DNA of 64,000 nt from the NCBI GenBank assembly GCA_030390025.1, contig JASTWF010000327.1:434001-498000 (forward strand), written 5' to 3'. This document shows, in pieces, positions 1-45,875 of this stretch. The translations under genes and the position numbers were made by a program. The notes below the pieces were generated by a model, which searched no databases, was not told the DNA's origin, and saw nothing but the letters and a program-made list of their open reading frames with translations. Each line of letters starts with the position of its first letter. The stretch's first letter is position 1. The DNA is from Squalus acanthias (lineage: Eukaryota).

Positions 1-933
1 ACACCAAATTGGGAGTTAGAGTTAATACTGAAAGAAGACAAAATGCAAGAAGACATTAATAAATTTCAGAATGGGCGTGTAATTGGCAAATGAATTTCAC
101 TGTAGATCAGTGTGAGGTGGTGTGTTTTGGTGGGAAGAATAAGGAGGCCACTCACTACTTGGAGAAGGGGGTGAAATTGGGTTGCTTTGTGCCTCCCGCG
201 ATATTCAGCGGGAGGTTAGCGGCGGCGGTAGCCGGTAGCTCCCCGCGGCACTGCACCGCCAGCAATGACGTCATCGCCATGCGCAGCACCCCGGCTGCAA
301 CCTTGGGTTGTGACCCCTGACCTATCGCCGGACGATATGTCCGACAGGGTCAAGGGTCGTTCCTGCAGCCGCGGCGACGCCACTTAAAGGGCAGGTGTCG
401 GGCGGCAACTTTTTATTTTGGCCGACTGCCAGCACCTGCCCCCTTCCCCTTTCTTCTTCGGGGTGTCGGCCACGATCGCTCAGCCCGGCGCTCCTCTTGA
501 TCCGACACCCCGCTCCCCGGTGGTCCAGCAGGGCCCCGGTGTGAGCAGTGCTAGGCCCCTCCCCTTTAATCAGGGAGGGAGGTCTGCTATGACACGGTGC
601 TATGTGCCGACGGGCGTGGTGCTGTTGCACGAAGTGTGCGAAATTCACTGGTAGCGCCCCAAGAGGGAGGGCAGCGCTTCCAATAGCACCCCGCCTCCTG
701 CTTGGGGCGCTACCACTGAATTTAATGCGCAGGGGCGCTAACTTTTTTGGGGCGCTAAAATTAGCTCCGGCGACGTTAGCGACCCAAAGGGGGCGCCACC
801 AAATTTCTCCCCCTGAGAGTCTAAATGGGCTGGAGGAGCAGAGGAATCCAGGGATACAGATACACAAATCACTAAAAGTAGCGACACACGTTAATAAGGC
901 CATTAAAAAAAAAAGCACTGGGGTACATTCCTA
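1..933 (+). mobile_element. Degenerate CR1 LINE RT fragment, split by a Harbinger-type MITE at 167-813
   Basis: The flanks read as CR1 ORF2 (TKLG..., WQMNF...CEVVCFGGKN, ...HKSLKVA) and join across the insert; homologous to the CR1 copy at 11160-16435 (- strand). Confidence 0.8.
167..813. mobile_element. Non-autonomous PIF/Harbinger-type MITE (647 bp)
   Basis: Left TIR GGGGGTGAAATT (167-178); right end AATTTCTCCCCC (802-813), 11/12 match. The right subterminal gcgacccaaagggggcgccaccaaatttctccccc closely resembles the right end of the autonomous element (gcgccccaaatggggcgcgacctaatttctacccc). GC-rich, no credible ORF, TSD not clean (GAA/TGA). Confidence 0.8.
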
Positions 934-1349
934 AAGGAGCCTTCTGTTCCGTGCCTAGGAGCTCTGAACCATGGCAGAGAGCGGCTGGGACACGTTTCTC
1001 ACAGGCCTCGAGATTAACCCGCACGGAGACTTTGCTGTCAGTGAAGAGAGACGAGAAAGACCAAAGTGCCGTTTGCCCCTCTCAGTGTGGCCCTGAAGGA
1101 CTGTGTCCAGGCTGAAGTTCTGTTCCCGCCGTACGATCCTCCCCCAGATTGTCCTTTCTGAGCTCCAGCCAGGTGATGCTAAACACTCAGGTGGGAAAGA
1201 CAAAAATCTACAACAATGTGTTTAAAACAAAGCTGATTTATTTGACATCTATCCAGAATATTAAACTCCAGCCCAGTTACAGGAGTTATTAACATCAGCA
1301 GAAACAAACCCCAACTGTCAGAATGAACATGGTTCAGTCCTGGATGTGA

Positions 1350-2510
1350 TTAACAGCAGCAATAACAGCAGAATCCAACCCCTGCAGTCACTTGTGAACT
1401 CGCTGGTGTCTCAGCAGGTTGGATGACTGAGTGAATCCCTTCCCACACACGGAGCAGGTGAACGGCCTCTCCCCAGTGTGAACTCGCTGGTGTGTCAGCA
1501 GGTTGGATGAACGAGTGAATCCCTTCCCACACACGGAGCAGGTGAACGGCCTCTTTCCCAGTGTGAACTTGCTGGTGTTTCAGCAGGGTGGATGACTGAG
1601 CGAATCCCTTCCCACATACGGAGCAGGTGAACGGCCTCTCCCCAGTGTGAACTCGCTGGTGTCTCAGTAGGTTGGATGACTGAGTGAATCTCTTCCCACA
1701 TACGGAGCAGGTGAATGGCCTCTCTCCAGTGTGAACTCGCTGGTGTACAGTGAGTTCAGATGACTGCCTGAACCCAGTCCCGCAGTGAGAGCACCTGAAC
1801 GGTCTCTCGTCAGTGTGAACACGTTGATGGCACATCAGTTCCCCGGAACTTTTGTAGTACTTCCCACAGTCCGGGCATTTAAAAGGTCTCTCGTCAGTGT
1901 GAGTGCGCTGATGATTCAGCAGGGTGGATGACTGAGTGAATCCCTTCCCACACACAGAGCAGGTGAACGGCCTCTCCCCAGTGTGAACTCTCTGGTGTGT
2001 CAGCAGATGCTTTTTGCTTTTCAATCTCTTCTCACAGTCAGAACATTTAAAAGGTCTCTTATCAGTGTGAACAAGTTGGTGTGCCCGCAGGTGGGATGAA
2101 CGAGTGAAACACGTCCCACACTCAGAGCAGGTGAACGGTCTCTCTCCAGTGTGAGTGCGCTGGTGTACAGTGAGTTCAGATGATCGCCTGAACCCAGTCC
2201 CGCAGTGAGAGCACCTGAACGGTCTCTCCCCAGTGTGAACACGTTGATGGCATGTCAGTTCCCCGGAACTTTTACAGCACTTTCCACAGTCCAGGCATTT
2301 AAAAGGTCTCTCATCAGTGTGAGCGCGCTGATGATTCAGCAGGGTGGATGACTCAATGAATCCTTTCCCACACTCAGGGCAGGTGAACGGCCTCTCCCCG
2401 GTGTGAATGCGCTTGTGTGTCGATAGGCCAGATGATCGGCTGAAGCCTTGTCCACACACAGAACACGTGTACGGTTTCTCTCCGCTGTGAACGGTGCTTT
2501 TTGCTTCCAT
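1350..2510 (-). CDS. C2H2 zinc-finger gene A: 11 intact fingers, then a +1 frameshift near 1555 removes the last 2
   Basis: ATG at 2510 ([16 protein letters not shown]), repeated CxxC-x12-HxxxH motifs with TGERP linkers, acceptor ttttacag near 2620. The family-typical stop (CACAAGTGA) at 1388-1390 is bypassed by the frameshift. Confidence 0.85.
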
Positions 2511-2909
2511 GTTCAGAGGCCGGTGATATTCAGATCCGATGAGTCGAGTGACTCTGTCAGATCTTGACGTGATGTTTGGTTTGAGCTTACCGTCTGTAAA
2601 TCCTCCCCTTCTAAAGCTCTGTAAAATGAATTTAAAACAGGGAGCGTGAGAGAGAACCCAGAAAAACACAAAGGCAGGTTGTGAAATTGAGTTAATGAAT
2701 CTGGTCATTTGTGGGGCCGGCACTAGAAAAAAGTGACCATGAAAGCTGCCGGATTGTCCTAAAAACCCAACTGGTTCACCGAATGTCCTTCAGGGAAGGG
2801 AATCCGCCACCTGGTCTGGGCCTACACAAGACTCTGGCCTCTATGGGAGGAGAGAGAGAGAGGTGGGAGTGGGAGGGGGGGAGGGGGCGAAGGAAAGGAA
2901 CTTTATACA

Positions 2910-3245
2910 TCTGCAACTCGACCAGAACTTTGACGGAACCTCCAAAAGCCGCAACCTCCACCAATGGAAGGACAAGGGCAGCTGTTGCATGGGAGCACCA
3001 TCACCTCCAAGTTCCCCTCCAAGTCACACAGCATCCTGACTCAGATATATATAGTCATTCCTTCATCGTTGCTGGGTCAAAATCCTGGAACTCCTTACCG
3101 AACAGCATTGTGGGAGTACCTTCACCACACGGACTGCAGCAGTTCAAGAAGGTGACTCACCACCACCTTCTCAACAGGCAACTGGGGATTGGCCATATAT
3201 GCTGCTCTTGCGAGCGACGCCCACATCCCAAGAATGAATTAAAAC
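2910..3245 (+). mobile_element. 3' fragment of a CR1/L2-clade LINE (same family as 22485-24710)
   Basis: HHHLQVPLQVT and SWNSLPNS segments match the 22543-23223 ORF and 60560-61520. Confidence 0.7.
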
Positions 3246-3499
3246 AAATCTGTATATGTAAACTGGACTAAAAGCCTCTACAGAAATACTTGTTCCTAAA
3301 ACAATACTCTTTTACATTGTAGGAACAGTGTCTGCTTAACAACCTAATCTCCCCCAGAATTCACCTCCCTTGACAGTCTCACATTGGAAATTGTTGGGCC
3401 CTCCTGGGCTCAGAAGTACTGGGGGTTAAACCCAGCAGCTTCTCCTCCATCTCCACTCCAGCTCAAACTGAAGCAACAAAAAGACCTACACAGGCGGCC

Positions 3500-3812
3500 A
3501 GTGACCTACCTTCCGTCAGCCTGCAATAAAACTCTTCCCGACAGCCGCTGACTAATGGTGGCCACAGCACCCACAATTCCACGCGCCCCAGAAACCGCTC
3601 TATCCAACGCGCTGATTTCCCCGCTGAGAGTGCGCATGCTCCCCGGGGCCGCGGGCCATTCTGGGAGCCTGGCTCCTGTCCTTTGTCCCGAGTCGGACTC
3701 GGTGGAACCGGCTGAAGAAACCGGGAAGCGGCGGCTCGGATGGGGGAGGCGCTGCACCCTGGGTTTCCTGGTGCCGGGGCCCTGGCCGCACGTCCGCCGG
3801 GCCCGGCCGCTC
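3500..3812 (-). promoter_or_regulatory. CpG-rich promoter/first exon of ZNF gene A
   Basis: CpG-rich stretch with an NRF1-like GCGCATGC motif (~3632) and a candidate splice donor GGAAG|GTAGGT at 3510/3509 on the - strand. Confidence 0.5.
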
Positions 3813-3814
3813 TG

Positions 3815-5065
3815 ATTCTGATTGAGTTTTTTGATGAGGTAACAGAGAGGGTTGATGAGGGCAATGCGGTTAACGTGGTGTACATGGATTTCCAAAAGGC
3901 GTTCGACAAGTGCCACATAATAGGCTTGCCAGCAAAGTTGAAGCCCATGGAATAAAAGGGACAGTGGCAGCATGGATACGAAACTGGCTAAGTGACAGAA
4001 AACAGAGAATAGTGGTGAACGGTTGTTTTTCGGACTGGAGGAAGGTATACAGTGGTGTTCCCCAGGGGTCGGTACTAGGACCACTGCTTTTCTTGATATA
4101 TATTAATGACTTAGACTTGGGTGTACAGGGCACAATTTCAAAATTTGCAGATGACACAAAACTTGGAAGTATAGTGAACAGTGGGGAGGATAGTGATAGA
4201 CTTCAAGAGGACATAGACAGGCTGGTGGAATGGGTGGACACGTGGCAGATGAAATTTAATGCAGAAAAGTGCGAAGTGATACATTTTGGTAGGAAGAACG
4301 AGGAGAGGCAATATAAACTAAAGGGTACAATTCTAAAGTGGGTGCATGAACAGAGAGACCTGGGGTATGTGTGCACAAATCGTTGAAGGTAGCAGGACAG
4401 GTTGAGAAAGTGGTTAAAAAAGCATACAGGATCCTGGGCTTTATAAATAGAGGCATAGAGTCCAAAAGCAAGGAAGTTATGATGAACCTTTATAAAACAC
4501 TGGTTCGGCCTCAACTGGAGTATTGTGTCCAATTCTGGGCACCGCACTTTAGGAAGGATGTGAAGGCCTTAGAGATGGTGCAGAAAAGATTCACAAGAAT
4601 GGTTCCAGGGATGAGGGACTTCAGTTACGTGGATAGACTGGAGAAGCTGGGGTTGTTCTCCTTAGAGCAGAGAAGGTTGAGAGGAGATTTGATCGAGGTT
4701 TTCAAAATCATGAGGGGTCTGGACAGAGTAGATAGAGAGAAACTGTTCCCATTGGCGGAAGGGTCGAGAACCAGAGGACACAGATTTAAGGTGATTGGCA
4801 GAAGAACCAAAGGCGACATGAGGAAAAACTTTTTTACGCAGCGAGTGGTTAGGATCTGGAATGCACTGCCTGAAAGGGTGGTGGAGGCAGATTCAATCAC
4901 AGCTTTCAAAAGGGAATTGGATAAGTACCTGAAGTAAAGAAATTTGCAGGGCTACGGGGAAAGGGCGGGGGAGTGGGACTAGCTGAAGTGATCTTGCAGA
5001 GAGCCGGCACGGGCTCGACGGGCTGAATGGCCTCCTTCTGTGCTGTAACCATTCTATGATTCTAT
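3815..5065 (+). mobile_element. 5'-truncated CR1 LINE (RT C-terminus plus 3' UTR)
   Basis: ORFs 3910-4386 and 4371-4937 carry [14 protein letters not shown] and RPQLEYC...WNALP motifs; the 3' tail is ATTCTATGATTCTAT. Confidence 0.92.
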
Positions 5066-5199
5066 AAAATATTAGAAAGTTTGTTCCACAGAAGCACGGG
5101 GTTTATCTGCTTTTATTCATGAATTTAAAAAGTCTGTATTAAAACCTGAGCCAGTGTGTTGTGAGACAAAGAGCCTTGTGTCCAATAAGGGGAATAAAG

Positions 5200-5835
5200 G
5201 CCCACAGCCTCCCCTGGCCCCGGGCCCTGAACAAGGGACTGGAGAAACTCGCTGCCCCGCGGATCAGACAATCAGCCGGCGCTAGTCCCGCCCCTCGGGC
5301 TCCCCGATTGGTTGGAGGACCCGCCGCCGGCTCGCTCTTCCAGCCCCGCCCCACACCTTCCCTATTGGTCGGGAGCTCCCGTCAATCAGGCCGTGGGCCC
5401 GGATCACGCTTCCCCGAGGAGATCACGTGCTCCGTCCAACTGACTCCGCTCGGTCCGGGGCCTCGCGGACTCTGAGGTTTTTCTATTTCTCTTTATTCTC
5501 TCCCGATCCACCCCTCCCCCCCACCCCGCGCGATTCACCACCCAATCGGAGCGGAGAAAACTCACTTTGCGTCACCGATCGCGACTCTGTAACCGACACC
5601 AGGGCCATTCCCCGGAATGCCCCGCGCCGACTCCGTCCGGCAGGATCCGACCGCGCAGGCGCAGCTCCGAGTGGGGGAGGGGATTGGTGTCCTCTGGGCA
5701 TGCGCGGTTGTTACCCTTGGTGACCGAGAGGGGTCGCTGTGCCGGACTCGGCCCCAACCGCCGTTCCGCGTGCGCATGCGCGGACTCTCGGCTGTCAATC
5801 AACCATCAGCCAGAAGAGGTCGCTGGTGAGACCAG
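5200..5835. promoter_or_regulatory. CpG-island promoter with CCAAT/GC-box module and NRF1-like sites
   Basis: gattgg...ccccgccc...ctattgg module (5300-5390) and tgcgcatgcgc (~5770); inverted paralog at 42810-43450. Confidence 0.65.
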
Positions 5836-5839
5836 TGAA

Positions 5840-6418
5840 GAAAGAAAGACTTGCATTTCTATAGCGCCTTTCACCACCACCGGACGTCCCAAAGCGCTTT
5901 ACAGCCAATGAAGTACTTTTCGGAGTGTAGTCATTGTTGTAATGTAGGAAACGAGGCAGCTACTTAGCGCACAGCAAGCTCCCACAAACAGCAATGTGAT
6001 AATGAGCAGATAATCTATCATTTTGTTATGTTAATTGAGGGATAAACATTGGCTAGGACACCAGGGATAATTCCCCTGCTCTTTCCCACATTACAACAGT
6101 GACTACACCTCAAAAGTACTTCAATGGCTGTAAAGCACTTCAAGACATCTGGTGGTCATGAAAGCACGGTATAAATGCAAGTCTTTCTTTCTCGAAATAG
6201 TGTCATGGGATCTTTTATATCCACCTGAGAGAGCAGAGAGGGCCTCAGCTTAAAGTCTCATCCAAAAAACAGCACCTCCGACAGTGTGGCACACTCCCTC
6301 AGCACTGCACTGGAGTGTCAGCCTGGATTCCTGTGCTCAAGTCTCTGGAGTGGGACTTGAACCCACAACTTTCTGACTCAGAGGCGAGAGTGCTACCCAC
6401 TGAGCCACTGGCTGACAC
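5840..6418 (-). mobile_element. tRNA-derived SINE(s) with L2-like 3' tail (nested or partly duplicated)
   Basis: The - strand head has an A-box (TGGCTCAGTGG) and B-box (GGTTCAAGTCC); the tail reads aaaggcgctatagaaatgcaagtctttc; paralog at 39450-40105. Confidence 0.75.
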
Positions 6419-6425
6419 TAAAGAA

Positions 6426-6530
6426 CAAGCAGTTCTGACGAAAGGTCATCGACCTGAAACGTTAACTCTGTTTCTCTCTCCACAGATGCTGCCTGACCTG
6501 CTGAGTATTTCCAGCAGTTTCTGTTTTTAT
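6426..6530 (+). mobile_element. Short Penelope-derived insertion carrying a hammerhead ribozyme
   Basis: TSD TAAAGAA (6419-6425 / 6531-6537); sequence matches the 3' end of the Penelope element at 41854-41890 and 42730-42786. Confidence 0.75.
6431..6467 (+). ncRNA. Minimal type I hammerhead ribozyme
   Basis: Reads agtt-CTGACGA-a-AGGTC-atc-GACCT-GAAA-C-GTT-aact: both core boxes, stem II, stem I (agtt/aact) and a palindromic ACGT stem III. Confidence 0.75.
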
Positions 6531-6559
6531 TAAAGAAACGAGGGAGTGATTGCTGAGAG

Positions 6560-6830
6560 GAAGAATGTTGGGTCGTCCTGCGCATGCGCACCTCCCTGGC
6601 GGCTGAGGTGAAACACAGACTCGCCCCCACCTGAGCCGCGCACACGTACCAGATGTTGCGGCTCCGCATGCGCGCCCGATGTTCCAACCGCGGGGTTTTG
6701 TGCGCTGAGCATGCGCGTTGTGGACCGATCGGGACGGGTGATTGTGGAGCAGGAGGGAGAGCGCGGGGGCCATGAGCACATGGGCGGGACTCAGAGTCAA
6801 CAGAGCGCTTTCTGGAGCGCGGGGGCTTGT
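6560..6830 (+). promoter_or_regulatory. CpG-rich promoter-like region upstream of ZNF gene B with multiple NRF1-like sites
   Basis: TGCGCATGCGCA at ~6579-6590 and further GCATGCGC motifs at ~6667 and ~6709. Confidence 0.55.
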
Positions 6831-7087
6831 GGGTATTACAGCCGCCATTACTGCTGATCCTTTCAACCAACCTGTGCAGCAGCTGGAGCCTGAAAATCAG
6901 CTTCACTGCCCCTAGGTTCGGAAAGGGGAAAATTAAACAACAGTTTGCCTCTGATCCTTTTCTGAACTTGATTTACAGGGTTATAGAAGTGGAGCAGTTA
7001 CAGGCGGGAAGCTCAGACCAAACATCACGTCAAGATCTGACAGAGTCGCTCGATTCATCAGGACCTGAATATCATCGGCCTTTGCAC

Positions 7088-8557
7088 ATGGAAGGAGAAA
7101 GCAGCGATCGCAGCAATGACAAACCGCACACGTGTTCGGTGTGTGGACACGGATTCAGCCGATTGCCTGACCTGGTGAGACACGTGCACCGTCACACCGG
7201 GGAGAAACCGGGTAAAGGTGGGGATGGTGGGAAGGGATTCAGTTCCCCGTCTGCAATAGAAGTTCAACGGCGCAGTCACACCAGGGACAGTCCGTTCACC
7301 TGCTCCGTGTGTGGGAAGGGATTTGTTTGTTCATCCCACCTGCAAACACACCAGCGAGTTCACACTGACAAGAGACCATTTCAATGTTCTGACTGTGGAA
7401 AGAGCTTTAAAATCCCCCAGAATCTGAAGCGACACCAGCTTGTTCACACTGATGAGCGACCGTTTACATGTTCTGACTGTGGGAAGCATTTTAAAGGCCC
7501 CAGGGATCTGAAGGGACACCAGCTTGTTCACACTGACGAGAGACCCTTTAAATGTTCTGACTGTGGGAAGCGTTTTAAAAGCCCCAGGGATCTGAAGGGA
7601 CACCAGCGAGTTCACACTGACGAGAGACCATTCACCTGCTCCGTGTGTGGGAAGGGATTCTTGCAGTCCTCCAACCTGCAGACACACCAGCTTGTTCACA
7701 CTGACGAGAGATCCTTTAAATGTTCTGACTGTGGGAAGAGCTTTAAAAGCTCCGGGGATCTGAAGGGACACCAGCGAGTTCACACTGACGAGAGACCCTT
7801 TAAATGTTCTGAGTGTGGGAAGAGTTTTAAAAGCCCTGGGGAGCTCAAGCAACACCAGCGAGTTCACACCGGAGAGAGGCCGTTCACCTGCTCTGTGTGT
7901 GGGAAGGGGTTCGCTCGGTCCTCCAACCTGCTGGCACATCAGCGAGTTCACACTGGAGAGAACCCCTTTAAATGTTCTGACTGTGGGAAGAGATTTAAAA
8001 GCTCCCGGGAGCTGAAGAGACACCGGCTCTGCCACACTGGTGAGAGGCCATTCACCTGCTCCGTGTGTGGGAAGGGATTCACTCAGTCATCCGCCCTCCT
8101 GTCACACCAGCTTGTTCACACTGGGGAGAGGCTGTTCACCTGCTCCGTATGTGGGAAGGGATTCACTCAGTCATCCGCCCTCCTGTCACACCAGCGAGTT
8201 CACACTGGGGAGAGGCCGTTCACCTGCTCCGTATGTGGGAAGGGATTCACTCAGTCATCCACCCTCCTGACACACCAGCGAGTTCACACTGACGAGAGAC
8301 CCTTTAAATGTTCTGACTGTGGGAAGAGCTTTAAAAGCTCCGGGGAGCTGAAGAGACACCAACACCTATACACTGGGGAGAGACCGTTCACCTGCTCCGT
8401 ATGTGGGAAGGGATTCACTCAGTCATCCACCCTCCTGTCACACCAGCTTGTTCACACTGACGAGAGACCCTTTAAATGTTCTGACTGTGGGAAGAGCTTT
8501 AAAAGTTCGAAGAACCTTAAGAGACACCAGCATGTTCAGACTGATCATAGAATCTAA
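7088..8557 (+). CDS. C2H2 zinc-finger gene B (~489 aa from ATG, about 14 intact fingers plus degenerate ones), C-terminus cut by a CR1 insertion
   Basis: Acceptor atttacag at 6978; ATG at 7088 (MEGESS); tandem fingers. The stop codon lies inside the CR1 tail starting ~8546. Confidence 0.88.
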   Translation: MEGESSDRSNDKPHTCSVCGHGFSRLPDLVRHVHRHTGEKPGKGGDGGKGFSSPSAIEVQRRSHTRDSPFTCSVCGKGFVCSSHLQTHQRVHTDKRPFQCSDCGKSFKIPQNLKRHQLVHTDERPFTCSDCGKHFKGPRDLKGHQLVHTDERPFKCSDCGKRFKSPRDLKGHQRVHTDERPFTCSVCGKGFLQSSNLQTHQLVHTDERSFKCSDCGKSFKSSGDLKGHQRVHTDERPFKCSECGKSFKSPGELKQHQRVHTGERPFTCSVCGKGFARSSNLLAHQRVHTGENPFKCSDCGKRFKSSRELKRHRLCHTGERPFTCSVCGKGFTQSSALLSHQLVHTGERLFTCSVCGKGFTQSSALLSHQRVHTGERPFTCSVCGKGFTQSSTLLTHQRVHTDERPFKCSDCGKSFKSSGELKRHQHLYTGERPFTCSVCGKGFTQSSTLLSHQLVHTDERPFKCSDCGKSFKSSKNLKRHQHVQTDHRI

Positions 8558-8930
8558 CAGCACAGAAGGAGGTGATTCGGCCCATCGTGTCTGTGCCGGC
8601 TCTTTGAAAGAGCTATCCAATTTAGTCCCAAACCCCAGCTTTATCCCCAGAACTCTGCAAACTAGTCCTCTTCAAGTACACGTCCAATCACCGTTTGAAA
8701 GTTCCTGTGGAACCTGATTCCAGCATCCTTTCAGATGGTGCGTTCCAGATCTTAACAACCCTCTGTGTGAAAACAATTCTCCTCATTCACCTCTAGTTCT
8801 TTTAGCAACTATTTTAAATCTGTGACCTTTGGTTACCGACCCACTTGCCAGAGTGAACAGTTTCTCCCTACTTGCTCGATCAAAACCCCTCATCATTTTG
8901 AATATCTCTATTAGGTCTCCTCTTAACCTT
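8546..8930 (-). mobile_element. CR1 3' fragment
   Basis: LRGDLIEIFK...REKLF...GHRFK on the - strand; catagaat tail at ~8546. Confidence 0.85.
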
Positions 8931-9366
8931 CTGAGCTCACTGTACACAAGCGCACTCACACTGGGGCGAGGCCGTTCACTGAGCTCACTGTACACCAGCG
9001 CACTCACACTGGTGAGAGGCCGTTCACTGAGCTCACTGTACACCAGCGCACTCACACTGGTGAGAGGCCGTTCACTGAGCTCACTGTACACCAGCGCACT
9101 CACACTGGGGAGAGACCGTTCACTGAGCTCACTGTACACCAGCGCACTCACACTGGTGAGAGGCCGTTCACTGAGCTCACTGTACACCAGCGCACTCACA
9201 CTGGTGAGAGGCCGTTCACTGAGCTCACTGTACACCAGCGCACTCACACTGGGGGGAGGCCGTTCACTTGAGCTCACTGTACACCAGCGCACTCACACTG
9301 GGGGGAGGCCGTTCACTTGAGCTCACTGTACACCAGCGCACTCACACTGGGGAGAGGCCGTTCACC
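8931..9366 (+). repeat. 48-bp tandem repeat (~9 copies) derived from half a zinc finger
   Basis: Unit ctgagctcactgtacaccagcgcactcacactggtgagaggccgttca encodes [16 protein letters not shown] in the ZNF frame. Confidence 0.92.
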
Positions 9367-9854
9367 TGCTCTGAATGTGGAAAGGGATTTCACTTGTTCA
9401 TCCCACCTGCTGACACACCAGCGGGTTCACACTGATAAGAGACCTTTTAAATGTTCTGACTGTGAGAAGAGATTTAGAAGCAAAAAGGATCTGCTGAATC
9501 ACCAGTGAGTTCACACTGACGAGACCATTTAAATGCCCAGACTGTGGGAAGTGCTATAAAAGTTCCGGGGAACTGACATTCCATCAATGTGTTCACACTG
9601 ACGAGAGACCGTTCAGGTGCTCTCACTGCGGGACTGGGTTCAGGCAGTCATCCAACCTCACTGTACACCAGCGCACTCACACTAGGGAGAGGCCATTCAC
9701 CTGCTCCGTGTGTGGGAAGGGATTCGCACAGTCATCCACCCTGCTGAAAAACCAGCGAGTTCACACTGGGGAGAGGCCATTCACTTGCTCTGAGTGTGGG
9801 AAGGGATTCACTCAGTCATCCAACCTGCTGAATCACCAGCGAGTTCACATGTGA
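9360..9854 (+). pseudogene. ZNF remnant (about 6 fingers) with frameshifts and a stop; inverted paralog of the gene A 3' end
   Basis: Finger motifs with indels and a TGA at 9506-9508; the downstream 9850-10310 matches 935-1390 in inverted orientation. Confidence 0.8.
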
Positions 9855-12480
9855 CTGCAGGGGTTGGATTCTGCTGTTATTGCTGTTGTTAATCACATCC
9901 AGGACTGAACCATGTCATTCTGACAGTTGGGATTTGTTTCTGCTGATGTTAATAACCCCTGTAACTGGGCTGGAGTTGATTTTCTGGATAGATGTTAAAT
10001 AAATCAGCTTTGCTTTGAACAAATTGTTGTAGATTTTTGTCTTTCCCGCCTGAGTGTTTAGCATCACCTGGCTGGAGCTCAGAAAGGACAATCTGGGGGA
10101 GGATCGTACGGCGGGAACAGAACTTCAGCCTGGACACAGTCCTTCAGGGCCACACTGAGAGGGGCAAACGGCACTTTGGTCTTTCTCGTCTCTCTTCACT
10201 GACAGCAAAGTCCCCGTGTGGGTTAATCTTGAGGCGTGTGAGAAACGTGTCCCAGCCGCTCTCTTCCATGGTTCAGAGCTCCTAGGCACGGAACAGAAGG
10301 CTCCTTTACAACTGTGTTTAGAGTCAGGAAGAACAACGGTGAATGCTGAAAACGTGCTGTCAAATCAGAGATTGGTGTCAAACTGCGATCTGTTCCTGAC
10401 TGAAAGTGAAACAGGTTTAAGTTTCCAGTCTAAAAATGACTGGTAATCATTCTATGAATATTTAACGTGTTTGTGTGACAGTCCTGAGTCTACCAGTTTA
10501 AGGCAGGTGTTAACCCATTTAAAATAAACCCGTTTAAAATAAATTGGTTAAAATCTGCATTAAAATAGCAGAGGGAGGAGTTCACAGGAGCCTGTTAACT
10601 GCTGGTACAATTATACAACAGACATTTGATCTCCAGATAAAGAAGGACCTGCAGCGTGTTTCCAGGAATTCCCTGTTTTATTGATGTGTGTGTGTTAGAC
10701 ACCAGGATAACTAAAAATACATGACCTGGAACATCCACAAGGATGAGATCTCGACAGTTTCTCTGGGATCACTCCCGCTGCGGAACTCCACCACTGACCC
10801 TGCTGAAGGTTGTCGGCTCAGGGAGTGGGGCCTCCAGGAGTGGACTGTAAGAAAGCTGGGCTTCAGTATCCTGACAAATATATGGTGAGGAACCAGAGGA
10901 ATCCTTACTGAGGAACCGTGTGGGCTCTTACCTGCCTGCGAAGGTCGAGGGGCGAATGATGCCTGACTCCCCGAAATTTGAACCCAGTTTATAACGAGAT
11001 AAATTGAGTTTACAGAAGAATAGGGACAAATATCACCCACAATTGAGGGAGACAAAAGCAGCCATTAGAGAAGCTCAGAGGGATTTGGAAATGAAGATGC
11101 TGCACAATTGTGGTAATATTAGTAAAATCTTTTCCAGCTACGTCAGGAGTCAGAGGACATAGTTACACAGAGTTACATCGAATTACAGAGTCTACAGCAC
11201 AGGAACAGGCCATTCGGCCCCACTGGTCAATGCCGGTGTTTCTGCTCCACATGAGCCTCCTCCCACCCTCGTGTGGAGCGAAGGGCCAGGCAGCAGAATG
11301 GATAGAAAGATGGCTACAAAATCCGATTAGCATAACCTTCGATTCCTTTCTCCCTCATGCGCTTATCTAGCTTCCCCTTAAATGCAGCTGTGTTATTCCC
11401 CTCGACTACTCCTTGTGGTAGCACGTTCCACATTCTTACCTCTCTTCGGGTAAAGAGGTTTCCCCTGAATTCCCCACTGGATTTATTAGTGACTTTCTTA
11501 TAATTATGACTTCTAGTTTTGGACTCCCACACAAGTGGAAACATTTTCCCGACATCCACCCTATAGAAACATTTCATAACCTTAAAGACCTCTATGAGGT
11601 CACCCATCAACCTTCTCTTTTTTAGACAAAAGAGCCCCAGCCTGTTCAGCCTCTCCTGATAAATATATCCTCTCAGTTCTAGGATCATCCTTGCAAATAC
11701 AATTTGCACCTTCTCCAGTGTCTCTATAATATATAATATTTTATAATATGGAGACCAGAACTGTGCACAGTACTCCAAGTGTGGTCTAACCAAGGTTCGA
11801 TACAAGTTTAACATAACTTCTCTGCTTTTCAATTCTATCCCTCTAGAAATGAGCCCCAGTCCATTGTTTGCTCCTTTTGTGGCCTCATTAACCTGCGTCG
11901 CTACTTTTAGTGATTTGTGTATCTGGACCCCGAGATCCCTTTGCTTCTCTACCCCATTTAGACTCCAAGGGGTAAAAATTCACTTGGTTGCGCCTCCCGT
12001 TAGCGCCTTAAGAGGGCGCTAATGGGGCGTTAAGCCGCTAACGCCCGGGCGCAGCGCTGTTTGCGCCGCTCGAGAACTTAACTTGAGATTGTGCGGCGGC
12101 GCTAAAACTTACCGCTGCGACCACCTGCGCGCGCAGATTGTGACGTCATTCCGTGGTGCAACGCCCTTGGGGCGCCCTGGAGCGGAAATTGAGTGGCGCC
12201 CCCTGCCTTACCGCCTGGCGCTTCCAACGACCGGAAGACTGGAACGTTATCAATCGGTGTGGGGCTGGGGGGGGCGCTATTTAAAGGGGGCCTCTTCCTG
12301 TCTTTTTCTGTGGTCGACATTTATGCACCACTCGTTCTGAGAGAGAGAGAGAGATTCGGAGAGAGAGCGAGAGAGACTTCTACATTGACTCAACGCTTTG
12401 TGAGGTAGTTTGGCCTAGTTCATCCTAACTTTGTTGCTACTTTAGTTGCTGCACCTCATTACTTTTCTGGCAAAGAGAAT

Positions 12481-13639
12481 ATGGGGGCTGCAATGATTGG
12501 GGGCGTCGTCCTGCTCCAGCTGAATCGGAGGATAGTGAGACGCAGACAGAGAGTGGCAATGATGGCCAGACGGAGGAGGGCCATCAGGCGCATGTACAGG
12601 AGAGCTTACCCTCCCAGGGTATATCGTGAACAGCTCTCCTACATCCATATGTCCGAGGAGCTGTGTTTGCGAAGGCTGCGATTCAGCAAAGGAGGTGGTC
12701 ACTGAGCTCTGCCACCTGCTGCAGCCAGATCTGCAGCCTCAGCTGAGGTCCAGGACGTCTCTGTCGGTGGCAGTGAAGGTCACAGTGGCTTTGAACTTCT
12801 ACGCCACTGGCTCATTCCAAGCTGCTGTTGGGGACCTCGCCAATATCTCCCACTTTGCGGTGCATCGCTGCATCCGGCAGGTCACCAATGCCCTCTTCAG
12901 AAGGAGACGAGACTTCATCTCTTTCCCTATGACCCCAGACAAGCAGCATGACCGTGCTATGGGCTTTGCGAGGGTAGCGGGCTTCCCCATGGTGCAGGGC
13001 GCCATTGACTGCACGCATGTGGCTTTGCGTGCTCCGCGAGAGAATGCAGAGGAATTCAGGAACAGAAAGGGGTTCCATTCCTTGAATGTGCAGTTGGTCT
13101 GTGACCACAGACAGGTGATTCTCGCTGTCAATGCCCACTATCCGGGCAGCTGCCACGATGCTTTCATCCTGCGCCAGACTACTGTGGCAGAACTTTTCGA
13201 GGCACCGCATCAGCCAGTTGGTTGGCTTCTGGGGGACAAGGGGTACGCATTGAGCACCTGGCTGATGACACCGCTCCGTACGCCAAACACCCCTGCTGAG
13301 CTGCGGTACCAGGAAAGCCATCAAGCAACCAGGAACATTATTGAGCGCACAATCGGCGTGCTGAAACAACGGTTCCGCTGTCTGGACCATTCCGGAGGAG
13401 CCCTGCAGTACTCGCCTGAGCAAGTTTCGAACTTCGTAGTCGTGTGCTGCATGTTGCACAACATGGCAATCCTCAGGACCCAGCCAATGCCACCAGGCCT
13501 TGTAGCACCACCAGAGGAGGAGGAGGAAGAGGAGGAACAGGACGAGGACGATGATCATCAGCACCAAGGCAGGAGGGCGGCCCACAATGGTCAAACTGCA
13601 AGGGCCGTCCGTCAACGACTAATAGCAAGCCGCTTCTAG
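12481..13639 (+). CDS. Harbinger DDE transposase (HARBI1-like, ~385 aa if repaired) with a single +1 frameshift at ~12688-12690
   Basis: ATG at 12481 gives ...LRRLRFS; an extra A shifts into EVVTELC. Catalytic motifs GAIDCTH, LLGDKGY and IIERTIG are present, as are RNRKGFHSLNVQLVCD and CCMLHN. Confidence 0.92.
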
Positions 13640-13898
13640 GGCCCCTGCCATTGCTACAAACACTAATCAACCCAGCACGCAACCCCTAAGCCGGCCAAGG
13701 CACCAATAATTCCAACCACCAGCCATGTATATTTTGAATACAGAAACTTATTTATTTTACAAACTCTGTGTGTGTCAATTCCTTATGACAAACTCATAGA
13801 AATAAACACAAAAAAACAGTCAATAACATAACTGGTTCTCACAACCTGGAGATAATGTCCAAAACACTAAACAAAAGTTGGACCATGAACCTCGGCCT

Positions 13899-15757
13899 TT
13901 AATAAAAAAATGACCAGCATTTTGGCACACCTCCTACTTTTTGCCCTTCGAGGGTGATCTCCTTCCCTTGCGCACTTCCCCCCCTTCTAACCCTACTGCT
14001 CCTCCGTAATGGGACCTCAGTGGCTGCAGCAAGGCTGGTGGAAGGCTGCTGCTCGTCAGACCCTGACACTGCAGATGCCCCTGAAGGACGGCCTCGACCA
14101 CTTCTGGGCCTGGAGGGCCCGGCTGCAGACTGCACCAACTCTGCATGGGCGGCAGCAGTCTGTCCTACAGGCGGTGGCAAGTGCAGTGGAGAAGTGACAG
14201 TGTTGGCAGCAGGAATGCTGTCATCGTGAGAGAGGACAGCAACTCCCTGCTCGCCCGACACACTGGCACTCCCACGGGGCAGCACTTCAGCATCCGGAGC
14301 AATTTGCCGGAGAACAGATTGCTGGCCTGCTGCGGCGCGGTGACAGCCCCGGGGACATGTGCACGAACCATCGAGGATGGCAGCAGTCAGTGCTCGCGTG
14401 GCCTCAATCTGAGTCTGCATGAGAGCAGTCTCAGATGGGTTCCTGGCAGCCAGTGACTGAATTGCAGCACTAAGCGTTAGTGTGGCATCCGCCTGTGCTA
14501 CAGCGAAGTGCTCCACACTCCTTGCCAGTGCCTCAATGCATTCGGGCACCCTTCCCACTGCACCCATGAGCTCAGTGTGCATGCCCACCGCCTGGCTGTT
14601 CATTTCTGCAATCAGCCGCTCCTCCTCTGCGTCCATTGCAGTAGGAGTGTCTGGCATACTCTCCCTCTGGGGAGAAGGCTCCCGTTCTTCCCTCCCCCCC
14701 CCATGGCGTTGCTGCAGCCCGCTGGGTCCTGGAGCTTCACCATCATCAGCCCCTTCCCCCCTGCTCCCCTCCGGGGAAGGCGTGTTCCCAGTGTGGCCAT
14801 GGGCTTCCTCGGGAGAGGGTGGCACTGATGCTCCGGCTTCCTCTTCCTCCTCAGCTGCAGCATCACTCCCAGTGGCAGCTTCAGGGCCCGTCTCCTCAGC
14901 TGGTGAATCACCATCTGAAAGCAGGGAGGTACAAGAGTGGCTTTAGCGTGAGGACAGGGTGGCAGTAAGGGAGGAATAAGTGCAGCGAGTTAGCAAGTTG
15001 GATTGAAAGTGTCAAAGGCTGGTATTGTGAGGGACAAGTGGAAGGACAGAGGACAAAAAGGTGATGACCTTACCATTGCTGTCCACAACGGGGTCGGCGT
15101 CCCCAGTGGCGACGGGACCGATCACCCGGCTTGCCACAATCCTGTGGACGCGCTCCTCAAGATCGCTGAGGGGTTGCAGCTGAAGCCGCCCTCCACCCGT
15201 CCGTTGCTGCTGTCTCCGATTATGAGCCAGCTTAGCCTGCAAGAAAAAGGACAGCATCTGAGTAAATATACAGCCATGGTCTTGCCTGATGTGCCTCCCA
15301 TAGGTGAATAGCCCTTACAATATGCAGCCATGGTCTTGCCTGATGTGCCTCCCATAGGTGAATAGCCCTTACTGTATGCAAAGTGTGGAATGTGTGTGTG
15401 TGTTTGATGAAAGGGCCATAGGTGTTGCATGAGTGTTGTGCATTGGGGTTTTAAGACCCTCTGGCCATAGAGTGAGGTTGAGATGGAGGGATGGAGAGGT
15501 ATTGAGAAAAAGCCACTCACCCTGACGACCCGAGTGAGGTCGTTGAACTTTTTGCGGCACTGAACATGGGTCCTGGGCACCATGCTCCTGGAGGAGACGC
15601 TCTGAGCCACCTCCCTCCACACTCTTCTGAACTCGCGTGGCAAAGGCCTCCTGCCACTCTCCGGGAACAGCATGCATCGTCTGCGCTCCACTGCGTCAAC
15701 CAGAGCATCCAAGGCCCGCTCGGTGAAGCGATGAGCGCGTTCTCTCACCCTCTCCAT
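13899..15757 (-). CDS. Harbinger Myb/SANT-like DNA-binding protein, 3 exons (15757-15521, 15236-15074, 14914-13899), ~471 aa, intact
   Basis: Exon 1 has RFTERALDALV...W.EVAQSVSS...RTHVQCRKKFNDL (trihelix). GT-AG junctions (GTGAGT, ttgcag, GTAAGG, tttcag) join in frame for 237+163+1016 nt. Exon 2 has RTGGG; exon 3 is acidic/low-complexity. Confidence 0.85.
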
Positions 15758-17039
15758 GCTTGGCAGCAAAATGGATTACAGGTCTCTCCAGGCTGAGATT
15801 CAAGGCTGCAATGAGCAGGGTGTGGCTGGGGAGCAAGTGGCCCCCCCCGCTTTAAGAAGTGTCCGGCGCCAGTGTGTCTGTGTTCCCTCGCTAACTGGCA
15901 GCAGCTGCGCTGCGCTCGTGCGCTGAGGTAGCGCCTCACTCCTAGGCCTTTGCGCCTTAAGAGAGGTGTGCAGCGCCTAATTTAGCGCTCCACTCACCTC
16001 CCGGGGCGGTAAAAGTGAAGTTTCCTGTCAGTGCCGATAATTAGCGCCAGGCGCTAATATTTGCGCTCGGATGATATTTGCGCCCCAAATGGGGCGCGAC
16101 CTAATTTCTACCCCCAAGTAATTTCCCAGTAGTGTGTGGCCTCTTTATTCTTCCTACCAAAACACACCACCTCACACTGATCTACATTGAAATTCATTTG
16201 CTAATTAAACACCCATTCTGCAAATTTATTCATGTCTTCTTCCATTTTCTCGCAGTCTTCCTCATTGTTATCTACACATCTCAATTTGGTGTCATCGCCG
16301 AATTTTGAAATTGTACTTCCGATTCCCAGTGCAAATCGTTTAGATAAATGATGAACAACAGTGATCCCAGCATCGATCCCTGTGGAACACCACTTCCCAC
16401 CTTTTGCCAGTCTGAGTAGCTACTCCCAACCCCTAAGTCTGTAAGATCTAGAAGATGACCCAGGTCAGGCCGTGTGGAGTGAAGGGCCAGGCAGCAGAAT
16501 GGATGGAAAGATGGCTACAAAACAGAAATCAGAGGGTTGGAGTTAAGGGAAGTTTGTTGTGATCTTTCCATCCATTCTGCTGCCTGGCCCTTGACTCCAC
16601 ACGGCCTGACCGTGGTCATCTTGTAGACCGTACATACTGCAGACACAGTGCACCAATGGTGGAGGGGGTGGATATTGAGTCCTGTGGCAGGGCGCTGATG
16701 AAGTGGATTTCTCTGTCCGTGAGTTTTGAGGCATTGCTAGTGGCATTTTTCACCTCTTTCCACCTTTAACATAAAATCTTATTGCCAGTTTATTAAAGCC
16801 TCTCGGGTAGGTCACAAAAAAAATTCAGGCCTCATAAGTTTCCCTCAGAATGACAGGCCTGAACCCGAGTTAGAAAACATTTAGTAATTAAACCAGACTG
16901 GGCGGGGCCTGAGGTGTGAGTTAATAACGGAAAATTAGTGGCCAGCGTACTTCACACCAGGGCTGAGGACCCGGGCACTCGGGTTTCTGTATCATTTATT
17001 GATTAATTTAGTTTATTGCCCAATCTTAATCAGACAGGC

Positions 17040-43589: not shown

Positions 43590-45875
43590 ATAGAATGGTT
43601 ACAGCACAGAAGGAGGCCATTCAGCCCGTCGAGCCCGTGCCGACTCTCTGCAAGAGCACTTCAGCTAGTCCCACTCCCCTGCCCTTTCCCCGTAGCCCTG
43701 CAAATTTCTTTCCTTCAGGTACTTATCCAATTCCCTTTTGAAAGCTGTGATTGAATCTGCCTCCACCACCCTTTCAGGCAGTGCATTCCAGATCCTAACC
43801 ACTCGCTGCGTAAAAAAGTTTCCCCTCACGTCACTAATCTAGTCTCATACTCTCTCTTTGCCCCTCTTATTCCCTTTTAAATCTCCTCTGTACATTCTAT
43901 ATTCAGCTTGGTTCTCTACTGTATTCTGTCATAAGCTTCATTTTCTGTCTCGTTTTAACCTCTCTATATCTTTTGTCATCGAGAGAGCTCTAGCTTTGGA
44001 TGCACCTCCTTTCCCCCTTGTGGGAATGTGTTTACTCTGTACTCGAACTCCTGGTTGAAGGCCTCCCATTGTTCAATTACTGTTTTGCCTACCAATTTTT
44101 GATTCCAATCCACCTGGGCCAGATCCCTTTTTAACTCCTTTAAGTTAGCCCTCCCCCAGTTAAGTATTTTTATGCTTGATTGTTCCTTGTTCTTTTCTGT
44201 AACTATTCTAAACCTGATGACATTATGATCAGTGTTCCTCAAATGCTCCCGCACTGAAACATGCTCCACTTGCCCCATTTCATTCCCCAGAACTAGATCC
44301 AGCACTGCTTCTTTCCTCGTTGGGCTGGAAACAGTGTTTAAGAAAGTTCTCTTGTACACATTTCAGGAATTTCTCCCCCTCTATGTCCTTTACACTGTTA
44401 CTATCGCAGTCTATATTAGGATAATTGAAGTCTTCCATTATCACTACACCGTAGTTCCTGTATCTTTCTGTAATTTGTCTGCAAACTTGCTTCTCTCTCT
44501 CCTTCCCATTGTTTGGCGACCTATAGTATACACCCAGTAGCGTAATAGCTCCTCTATTGTTCCTTAAATCGAACCAAATAGATTCTGTTTTTGACCTCTC
44601 ACATAGAATCATAGAATGGTTACAGCACAGAAGGAGGCCATTTGGCCCGTCGAGCCCATGCTGGCTCTGTGCAAGTGTACTTCAGTTAATCCCACTCCCC
44701 CGCCCTTTCCCCGTAGCCCTGGAAAAAAAATTCCTTCAGGTACTTATCTAATTCCCTTTTGAAAGCCACGATTGAATCTGCCTCCACCACCCTTTCAGGC
44801 AGTGCATTCCAGATCATAACTACTCGCTGTATAAAAAGGTTTTTCCTCATGTTGCCTTTGGTTCTTCTGCCAATTACCTTAAATCTGTGTCCTCTGGTTC
44901 TCGACCTTTCCGCCAATGGGAACAGTTTCTCTCTATCTACTCTGTCCAGACCCCTCGTGATTTTGAACACCTCGATCAAATCTCCTCTCAACCTTCTCTG
45001 TTCTAAGGAGAACAACCCCAGCTTCTCGAGCTTATCCACGTAACTGAAGTCCCTCATCCCTGGAATCATTCTTGTAAATCTTTTCTGCACCATCTCCAAG
45101 GCCTTCACATCCTTCCTAAAGTACAGTGTCCAGAATTGGGCTCAATACTCCAGTTGAGGCAGAACCAGTGTTTTATAAAGGTTCATCATAACTTCCTTGC
45201 TTTTGGACTCTATGCCACTATTTATGAAACCCAGGAACCTGTATGCTTTTTTAACTGCTTTCTCAACCTGCCCTGCCACCTTAATGATTTGTGCACATAT
45301 ACCCCCAGGTCTCTCTGTTCATGCACCCCCTTTAGAATTGTACCCTTTAGTTTATATTGCCTTTCCTCATTCTTTCTACCAAAATGTATTAATTCGCATC
45401 TTTCTGCATTAAATTTCATCTGCCATGTGTCCGCCCATTCCACCAGCCTGTCTATGTCCTCTTGAAGTCTATCACTATCCTCCTCACTGTTACCTATACT
45501 TCCAACTTTTGTGTCATCTGCAAGTTTTGAAATTGTGCCCTGTACAGCCAAGTGCAAGTCATTAATATATATCAGGAAAAGCAGTGGTCCTAGTCCCTCT
45601 CCAGTGCTATAATAGTTTATTTGATCAATACTGCACATCTCCTTTTTTCCTTTCCTATCTTTCCTGAATACCTTGTAGCCAGGAATATCGAGTTCCCAAT
45701 CCTCCCCTTGTTTGAGCCAGCTCTCTGTTATTGCCACTATATCATAGTCCCATGTGGGTACTTGTGCCTGCAGTTCACCAATGTTATGTACCACGCTCGG
45801 TGCATTTACACACATGCACTCCAACTCCATCGTAGAATGCCTCAAACCTGTCTGATCCCTCCTATGTCTGAATAT
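43590..45875 (-). mobile_element. Nested CR1 fragments (endonuclease region plus RT/3' ends)
   Basis: EN motifs (ITESW, YYRSPN, DFNYP, LDLVL, DHN) and RT C-terminal ORF 44686-45108. Confidence 0.85.

Follow-up and report, generated by a model that had tools for sequence, protein, structure and literature searches.

Locus and inserted elements

We analysed a stretch of 64,000 nucleotides from the Squalus acanthias assembly GCA_030390025.1 (contig JASTWF010000327.1, positions 434,001 to 498,000 of the forward strand), referred to as the window, in which two Harbinger-type transposable elements interrupt two copies of a long interspersed nuclear element (LINE) at the same nucleotide. One is a non-coding miniature inverted-repeat transposable element (MITE), the other a 4,146-bp element with two genes (Table 1). 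Genome-wide counts and loci come from searches of the window's own assembly (3.7 Gb) and from fetched stretches of 41-1,027 bp.

There are exactly two occurrences of the word GAGTCTAAATGGG in the window, one at 817-829 on the plus strand and one at 11953-11965 on the minus strand, and each lies 3 nt from the end of a Harbinger-type element. The end motif GGGG[GT][AT][AG]AAATT was found at 167-178, 802-813, 11969-11980 and 16103-16114. Another word in the window that resembles a terminal inverted repeat (TIR), at 44368-44379, was rejected as a chance match within another repeat. Upstream of the insertion, 141 of 166 aligned bases are identical between the two LINE copies; downstream, the figure is 96 of 120 within the first 125 alignment columns. 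The first-pass annotation had placed both inserts at one nucleotide of two homologous CR1-like LINE copies on opposite strands, and the coordinates and sequences bear this out.

The LINE is presumably a CR1 element: the label comes from the first-pass annotation and agrees with CR1-like ORF2 C-termini. A Pfam scan of the host LINE fragments gave no match. In an uninterrupted LINE paralogue, the open reading frame (ORF) shows 53% identity (E 4e-71) to the C-terminal region of ORF2 in a neighbouring LINE, which has an RVT_1 match upstream (E 5e-18). Copy 2 belongs to a young subfamily, the copies of which are 97-99% identical to each other; its 216 bp adjoining the insert are 91-100% identical at 40 of 40 scored places. 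A further LINE copy, of a related family, lies at 3910-4937 (plus strand), has an RVT_1 match and lacks GAGTCTAAATGGG at the homologous place.

Table 1 Features of the window discussed in the text
Feature	Position	Strand	Basis or remark
Host LINE copy 1, upstream part	1..166	+	Aligns to reverse complement of 16115-16400; extends left beyond window
Harbinger-type MITE, 647 bp, non-coding	167..813	+	Imperfect TIRs GGGGGTGAAATT / GGGGGAGAAATT
Decayed right copy of 3-bp target duplication, TGA	814..816	+	TAA or CAA in most paralogues
Host LINE copy 1, downstream part	817..935	+	LINE homology stops near 935
GAGTCT, perfect GWSTYT half-site, copy 1	817..822	+	Motif match
C2H2 zinc-finger ORF	1350..2723	-	Many C2H2 finger repeats (84-bp repeats), within unit repeated elsewhere in genome
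Host LINE copy 2, downstream part in LINE sense	11500..11965	-	Homology to copy 1; empty paralogues
GAGTCT half-site, copy 2	11960..11965	-	Motif match
Left copy of target duplication, CAA (TTG in LINE sense)	11966..11968	+	Seven of seven empty sites with single TTG
Autonomous-type Harbinger element, 4,146 bp, young abundant family	11969..16114	+	Two genes, TIRs, target duplication
Left TIR GGGGTAAAAATT	11969..11980	+	End-motif search
Transposase gene, DDE_Tnp_4	12481..13639	+	Pfam PF13359, E 1.3e-38, profile positions 1-158 of 158
Putative Myb/SANT-like DNA-binding protein gene	13899..15757	-	Three putative exons, by eye from GT/AG sites
Right TIR GGGGTAGAAATT	16103..16114	-	End-motif search
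Right copy of target duplication, CAA	16115..16117	+	Window sequence; empty sites
Host LINE copy 2, upstream part in LINE sense	16118..16400	-	Homology to copy 1

Judged by its gene content, the 4,146-bp element has the classic two-gene PIF/Harbinger layout. It combines a DDE transposase, a Myb/SANT-like gene, a target site duplication (TSD) of 3 bp, short TIRs that match at 11 of 12 positions, and an extended target preference. Its transposase is split over two ORFs in different frames (12481-12705 and 12626-13639). A single additional A in the run of As at 12688-12690 shifts the frame; it is private to this copy, as 10 of 10 other sampled copies lack it. The Myb-like gene converges on the transposase gene, and its first exon (minus-strand ORF 15122-15769) matches Pfam PF13873 (Myb_DNA-bind_5, E 9.6e-9). 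A 62-bp tandem duplication (95% identical, 15265-15380) lies inside a presumed intron of this gene. For each end of the element, the terminal 200 bp match 40 of 40 scored places at 99-100% identity, and these places were drawn from 769 and 1,489 first-look candidates.

The MITE resembles the full element at its termini alone (right-end 65 bp, 78% identity, same plus orientation), and the interiors are unrelated. This agrees with the earlier statement that both run left to right on the plus strand with different interiors. No coding similarity was found between the two, and the MITE is short, non-coding and bounded by TIRs, like a Tourist-like MITE. Because only the termini are common to both, it is a related MITE and not a deletion derivative of the 11969-16114 copy.

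The MITE lies in a larger unit that also holds the zinc-finger ORF. The same MITE is present at the same place in 29 of 29 left-flank paralogues and in 29 of 29 right-flank paralogues. The MITE-bearing units are homologous over more than 3 kb, a tract that extends to at least 1.5 kb left of the window on one side and, through the 84-bp finger repeats of the zinc-finger ORF, to position 1666 on the other. In a blast search with the unit, most of 58 loci were 92-97% identical over the interval -1499 to +1666. As all these paralogues carry the MITE and the homology spans more than 3 kb, the MITE represents one old insertion that was passively copied with the zinc-finger unit.

Junctions and independence of the two insertions

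All seven fetched paralogous empty sites of LINE copy 2 hold a single TTG and read ...GGGAAATTACTTGGAGTCTAAATGGGG / ...CACTACTGGGAAATTACTTGGAGTCTAAATGGGG. Since the seemingly extra bases beside the full element are present in these empty sites, they are LINE subfamily sequence, and the element has a clean TSD. In this subfamily (16118-16127; empty sites L002-L008), AAATTACTTG precedes GAGTC, which is 3 nt longer than the GGAAAATAA of most occupied LINE copies.

For the MITE, the left junction reads TTGGACAACAA-MITE (TTGGA-CAACAA) in 18 of 29 paralogues and CAA in 8 of 29, and at the right junction TAA or CAA stands ahead of GAGTC in most. Relative to these paralogues, the copy in the window, flanked by GAA and TGA, has lost one CAA unit and gained point changes. 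Read in this way, its TSD fits a YAA duplication blurred by mutation. The irregular flanks of both inserts had been suggested to be footprints of earlier insertion and excision. This suggestion fails, as the paralogues and empty sites explain both flanks, which appear to be ordinary mutation and LINE subfamily sequence. Footprints are also disfavoured because PIF/Harbinger excision is usually precise (PMC2836001).

That the two inserts are independent events, as first proposed, is upheld by these comparisons. A single insertion that was later duplicated would make the MITE an inverted internal-deletion derivative of the full element's insertion. Such a history would suit the heavy duplication of the MITE-bearing unit; however, the two hosts are 80-85% identical (15-20% different) and an indel of 3 nt sets them apart at the site, the duplicated triplets in LINE sense are apparently YAA for the MITE and TTG for the full element, and the interiors are unrelated, with a common right terminus of 78% identity. 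The ages differ as well: the ends of the full element are 99-100% identical among copies, the paralogues of the MITE unit 92-97%. Judging from these identities, the MITE insertion is old and that of the 4.1-kb element recent. The probability of a single duplicated insertion is practically nil, and the derivative proposed as a refuting case is excluded by the alignments.

Target motif of the young family

For the young family of the full element, 60-bp junctions were fetched at 38 left-end and 39 right-end matches. L075 (unparsed) and L099 (which matched the other end of a neighbouring element) were left out, and 36 left and 39 right ends were usable. The target in these 75 ends is ARASWC-WWW-GWSTYT, a roughly palindromic 15-mer. 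Counted outward from the element, position 4 is G in 51 of 75 ends, position 5 is W and position 6 is S; T follows at position 7 (68 of 75), Y at position 8 (67 of 75) and T at position 9 (46 of 75), and the information fades after positions 9-11. The TSD is A/T-rich (TAT 10, ATA 9, AAA 9, TTT 8, TTG 8, TTA 7, TAA 6, others 18). A full GWSTYT match is present in 10 of 74 ends. The logo confirms the predicted target preference beyond the 3-bp TSD and excludes the contrary case, in which the flanks would be random outside the TSD.

At one locus (L107, C7:148718560-148718700), the left ends of two Harbinger elements point at one another, separated by TTA alone (...GAATTTTTACCCC TTA GGGGTAAAAATTCAG...). 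Either one element inserted exactly next to the end of another copy, or the arrangement is an inverted duplication.

Use of the LINE site across the genome

The LINE site reads TTG+GAGTCT in the subfamily of copy 2 and TAA+GAGTCT in most others, and both contain a perfect half-site. In most LINE copies, TAA is followed by GAGTCTAA. A log-odds matrix was built from 74 ends; L099 and the single end found at the LINE site were excluded. By best half-site, it ranks the LINE site first of 3,192 positions in five of five empty 3.2-kb LINE loci; by the sum of both halves, the site comes second to third in the same five loci. The TAA version outscores the TTG version.

Genome-wide, CCATTTAGACTC-NNN-GGGGKWRAAATT with up to one mismatch gave 398 matches (reversed control, 0), and exact CCCCTAAGAGTCTAAATGG junctions (CCCC-TAA-GAGTCTAAATGG) numbered 242 (reversed control, 0). 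Among the first 100 of these 242, 94 lie on the large contigs C1-C28, followed by C29, the site of zinc-finger unit copies. The 17-to-3 split of ends among the listed junctions with up to one mismatch was rejected as an orientation bias, since some right ends also read GGGGTAAAAATT. The anchored pattern TNNNNGAGTCTAAATGG (178 matches, 94 in the control) is uninformative on the LINE site. The 398 junctions and the non-random flanks leave next to no chance that two insertions met by pure coincidence in a LINE-rich window, even though only two LINE copies in the window contain the relevant segment.

We sampled 20 dispersed junctions at the LINE site. All of them have LINE sequence beyond the site (64 nt detectable in L155 and 120 nt or more in each of the remaining 19), so none is a copy of the zinc-finger unit. 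They comprise 14 types of element end in about nine forward and about nine reverse orientations, with TAA on both sides in five; the inserts include MITEs and deletion derivatives with 72-93% identity to the elements of the window. The elements are 91.6-98.5% alike in five of the eight pairs with similar element ends, and the LINE flanks 81-83%. In these pairs, the elements are more alike than their flanks and therefore arrived after the hosts had diverged. L157 and L158 are a local duplicate (LINE flank 98.5% identical), and one trio is ambiguous.

These comparisons show that the LINE site was hit independently many times. With the two orientations about equally frequent at the site, the opposite orientation of the two inserts in the window is meaningless. 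It could be argued that a LINE copy with a MITE kept retrotransposing, so that the occupied sites go back to one event. Most junctions do share the TSD TAA and an end of the GGGGGAAAAATT type, and the LINE subfamily is young. The 20 junctions speak against it, with their 14 end types in both orientations, their deletion derivatives and MITEs, and elements younger than their hosts; moreover, TAA is the LINE's own sequence at the site, and only the L157/L158 pair looks like a duplicate. The sample also suggests that occupied LINE copies are interspersed with empty ones. We regard this alternative as very improbable.

Specificity for the LINE

The first-pass annotation had further inferred a preferred site inside an abundant LINE. 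The 242 exact and 398 looser junctions support the part that concerns a recurrent target. The preference, however, is for a short motif and not for CR1: the matrix that ranks the site so highly was made from 74 ends at other places, only one of the 75 sampled ends of the young family (L122) lies at the LINE site, and a different repeat holds more junctions. About 12 of the sampled ends are in this repeat, at ...CATAGAGTC-ATA-GAGTTATACAGCACAG. Exact junctions at this second hot spot, CCCC-ATA-GAGTYATRCAGCACAG, number 1,445 genome-wide (control, 0), and 20 of 20 that were sampled are true Harbinger ends, 11 of the left type and 9 of the right type. Examples are L108, L113, L138, L146, L092 and L098, and a copy of the host repeat is in the window at 43590-43640. 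In a further repeat (...CACCAGGTTATAGTC-CAA), two insertions (L073 on C24 and L106 on C1) occupy one and the same position.

Taken together, two separate PIF/Harbinger insertions very likely fell on the same LINE nucleotide through the family's own extended target choice and not through homing to the LINE. Related PIF/Harbinger elements would have inserted by cut and paste, each drawn to an extended target beyond the 3-bp duplication, with the transposase and its Myb-like partner presumably reading the half-sites directly. One good half-site may suffice for insertion, as the other half of the LINE site matches poorly. As the target is near-palindromic and either element end can face the half-site, orientation would be arbitrary. 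The LINE is abundant, and therefore over a thousand copies of a good target are on offer. Many Harbinger subfamilies would have struck the LINE site over a long period, and the same rule would make hot spots in other repeats. A safe-harbour role of the LINE is not needed to account for the insertions and is not supported.

Several points weigh against target choice as the full explanation. The 9-mer TAAGAGTCT occurs 14,536 times genome-wide (reversed control, 45,675), the CR1-type TAAGAGTCTAAATGG 1,643 times (reversed control, 6) and CCCCTAAGAGTCT 466 times (reversed control, 67). CR1-type TAAGAGTCT sites are occupied in 242 of 1,643 cases (14.7%), the other TAAGAGTCT sites in 224 of 12,893 (1.7%; about 1.2% after subtraction of the control), which indicates that some of the preference lies outside the 9-mer. 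Duplicates of the zinc-finger unit inflate the numerator of 242, and a rough estimate without the duplicated unit is 6-8%. Exact GAGTCT is present in 0 of 74 sampled ends. The poorly matching half of the LINE site has A at -4, a base found there in none of the 36 left flanks. The logo describes the best-scoring, youngest copies only, and older subfamilies may differ; its left and right flanks come mostly from different insertions, so the sufficiency of one half-site is indirect. By the matrix, AA at positions 10-11 and the left flank should add 0.9-3.4 bits (about 2-10 fold) to the LINE site, and the excess occupancy is therefore plausibly generic. This predicted range overlaps the observed excess and may account for it. 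On C1, 9 of about 110 LINE sites are occupied.

The excess could instead reflect true homing to CR1, with the transposase or its Myb-like partner recognising more of the LINE than the generic motif and the LINE serving as a dedicated landing pad. A candidate for the recognised sequence is AAATGGGG, which follows GAGTCT and resembles CCAAATGGGGCG near the elements' own right ends; a AAATGGGG-like word is present 12-24 nt inside many element ends. CR1-type TAAGAGTCT sites are also occupied about 4-12 times as often as the others, which points in this direction. However, the logo is uninformative past positions 9-11, the site already comes first under the generic matrix, which also predicts an excess, and insertions in a different repeat are about six times as frequent. 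Homing is thus quite unlikely, and extended target choice by the elements themselves is the reading that we prefer.

Comparison with known systems

The reconstructed zebrafish element Harbinger3_DR integrates into the palindromic AAACACCWGGTCTTT (PMC3016246). An extended target preference is a hallmark of the superfamily and spans 9 bp in plant elements, 15 bp in those of vertebrates (PMC2836001). Like the present family, Harbinger3_DR has two genes (DDE transposase and Myb-like protein), a 3-bp TSD and a 15-bp near-palindromic target, and its outer half-sites AAACAC / GTCTTT fit the ARASWC / GWSTYT found here. The two differ in the central triplet, which is A/T-rich in the present family (TAT, ATA, AAA, TTT, TTG, TTA and others) and CWG in Harbinger3_DR, in the TIR and in the looser preference of the present family, given its few full GWSTYT matches (10 of 74). 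The likeness concerns layout and target. Maize PIF and rice mPing/Ping (Tourist-like MITEs) share an extended preference around a TWA-type 3-bp TSD, MITEs that are mobilised in trans and usually precise excision; they differ in a 9-bp preference, compared with about 15 bp here, and in their plant hosts (PMC2836001).

What brought about the coincident insertions is the extended target preference for which PIF/Harbinger elements are already known; the family itself is new and very active. A literature search at title and abstract level found no report of Harbinger hot spots in shark LINEs. Speculatively, recognition of AAACAC-like / GTSTTT-like half-sites would be ancient and conserved in vertebrate Harbinger transposases, shared by this cartilaginous-fish family and Harbinger3_DR with the central triplet shifted from CWG to WWW, and the 4-12 fold LINE excess would come from capture via the TIR-like AAATGGGG bound by the Myb-like protein. 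We consider this combination unlikely; if it held, an abundant LINE would become a semi-dedicated landing pad.

Homing is not a necessary conclusion when insertions coincide at one nucleotide of a repeat, as a 15-bp preference and an abundant repeat that bears the motif are enough. R2 retrotransposons, which are specific for ribosomal DNA, and the Pokey transposon are essentially confined to their target in repeated genes. With them the present family has in common that one position of a multicopy sequence is used repeatedly; in contrast to them, it places about 1 in 75 sampled insertions at the LINE site and uses many other sequences. Because of homoplasy, two elements of this family at the same insertion site are no evidence of shared ancestry, and composites of LINE and MITE may be mistaken for new families in repeat annotation. 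Harbinger transposases are relatives of the vertebrate HARBI1 gene, and a large, recent natural data set, comprising hundreds to thousands of insertions from which a motif can be measured, could help to map the determinants of Harbinger target specificity.

The zinc-finger unit

The unit with the zinc-finger ORF, including the LINE fragment and the MITE, recurs at no fewer than 58 further places, most of them on small contigs and C29. Judged by these copies, it is a recently amplified zinc-finger gene family.

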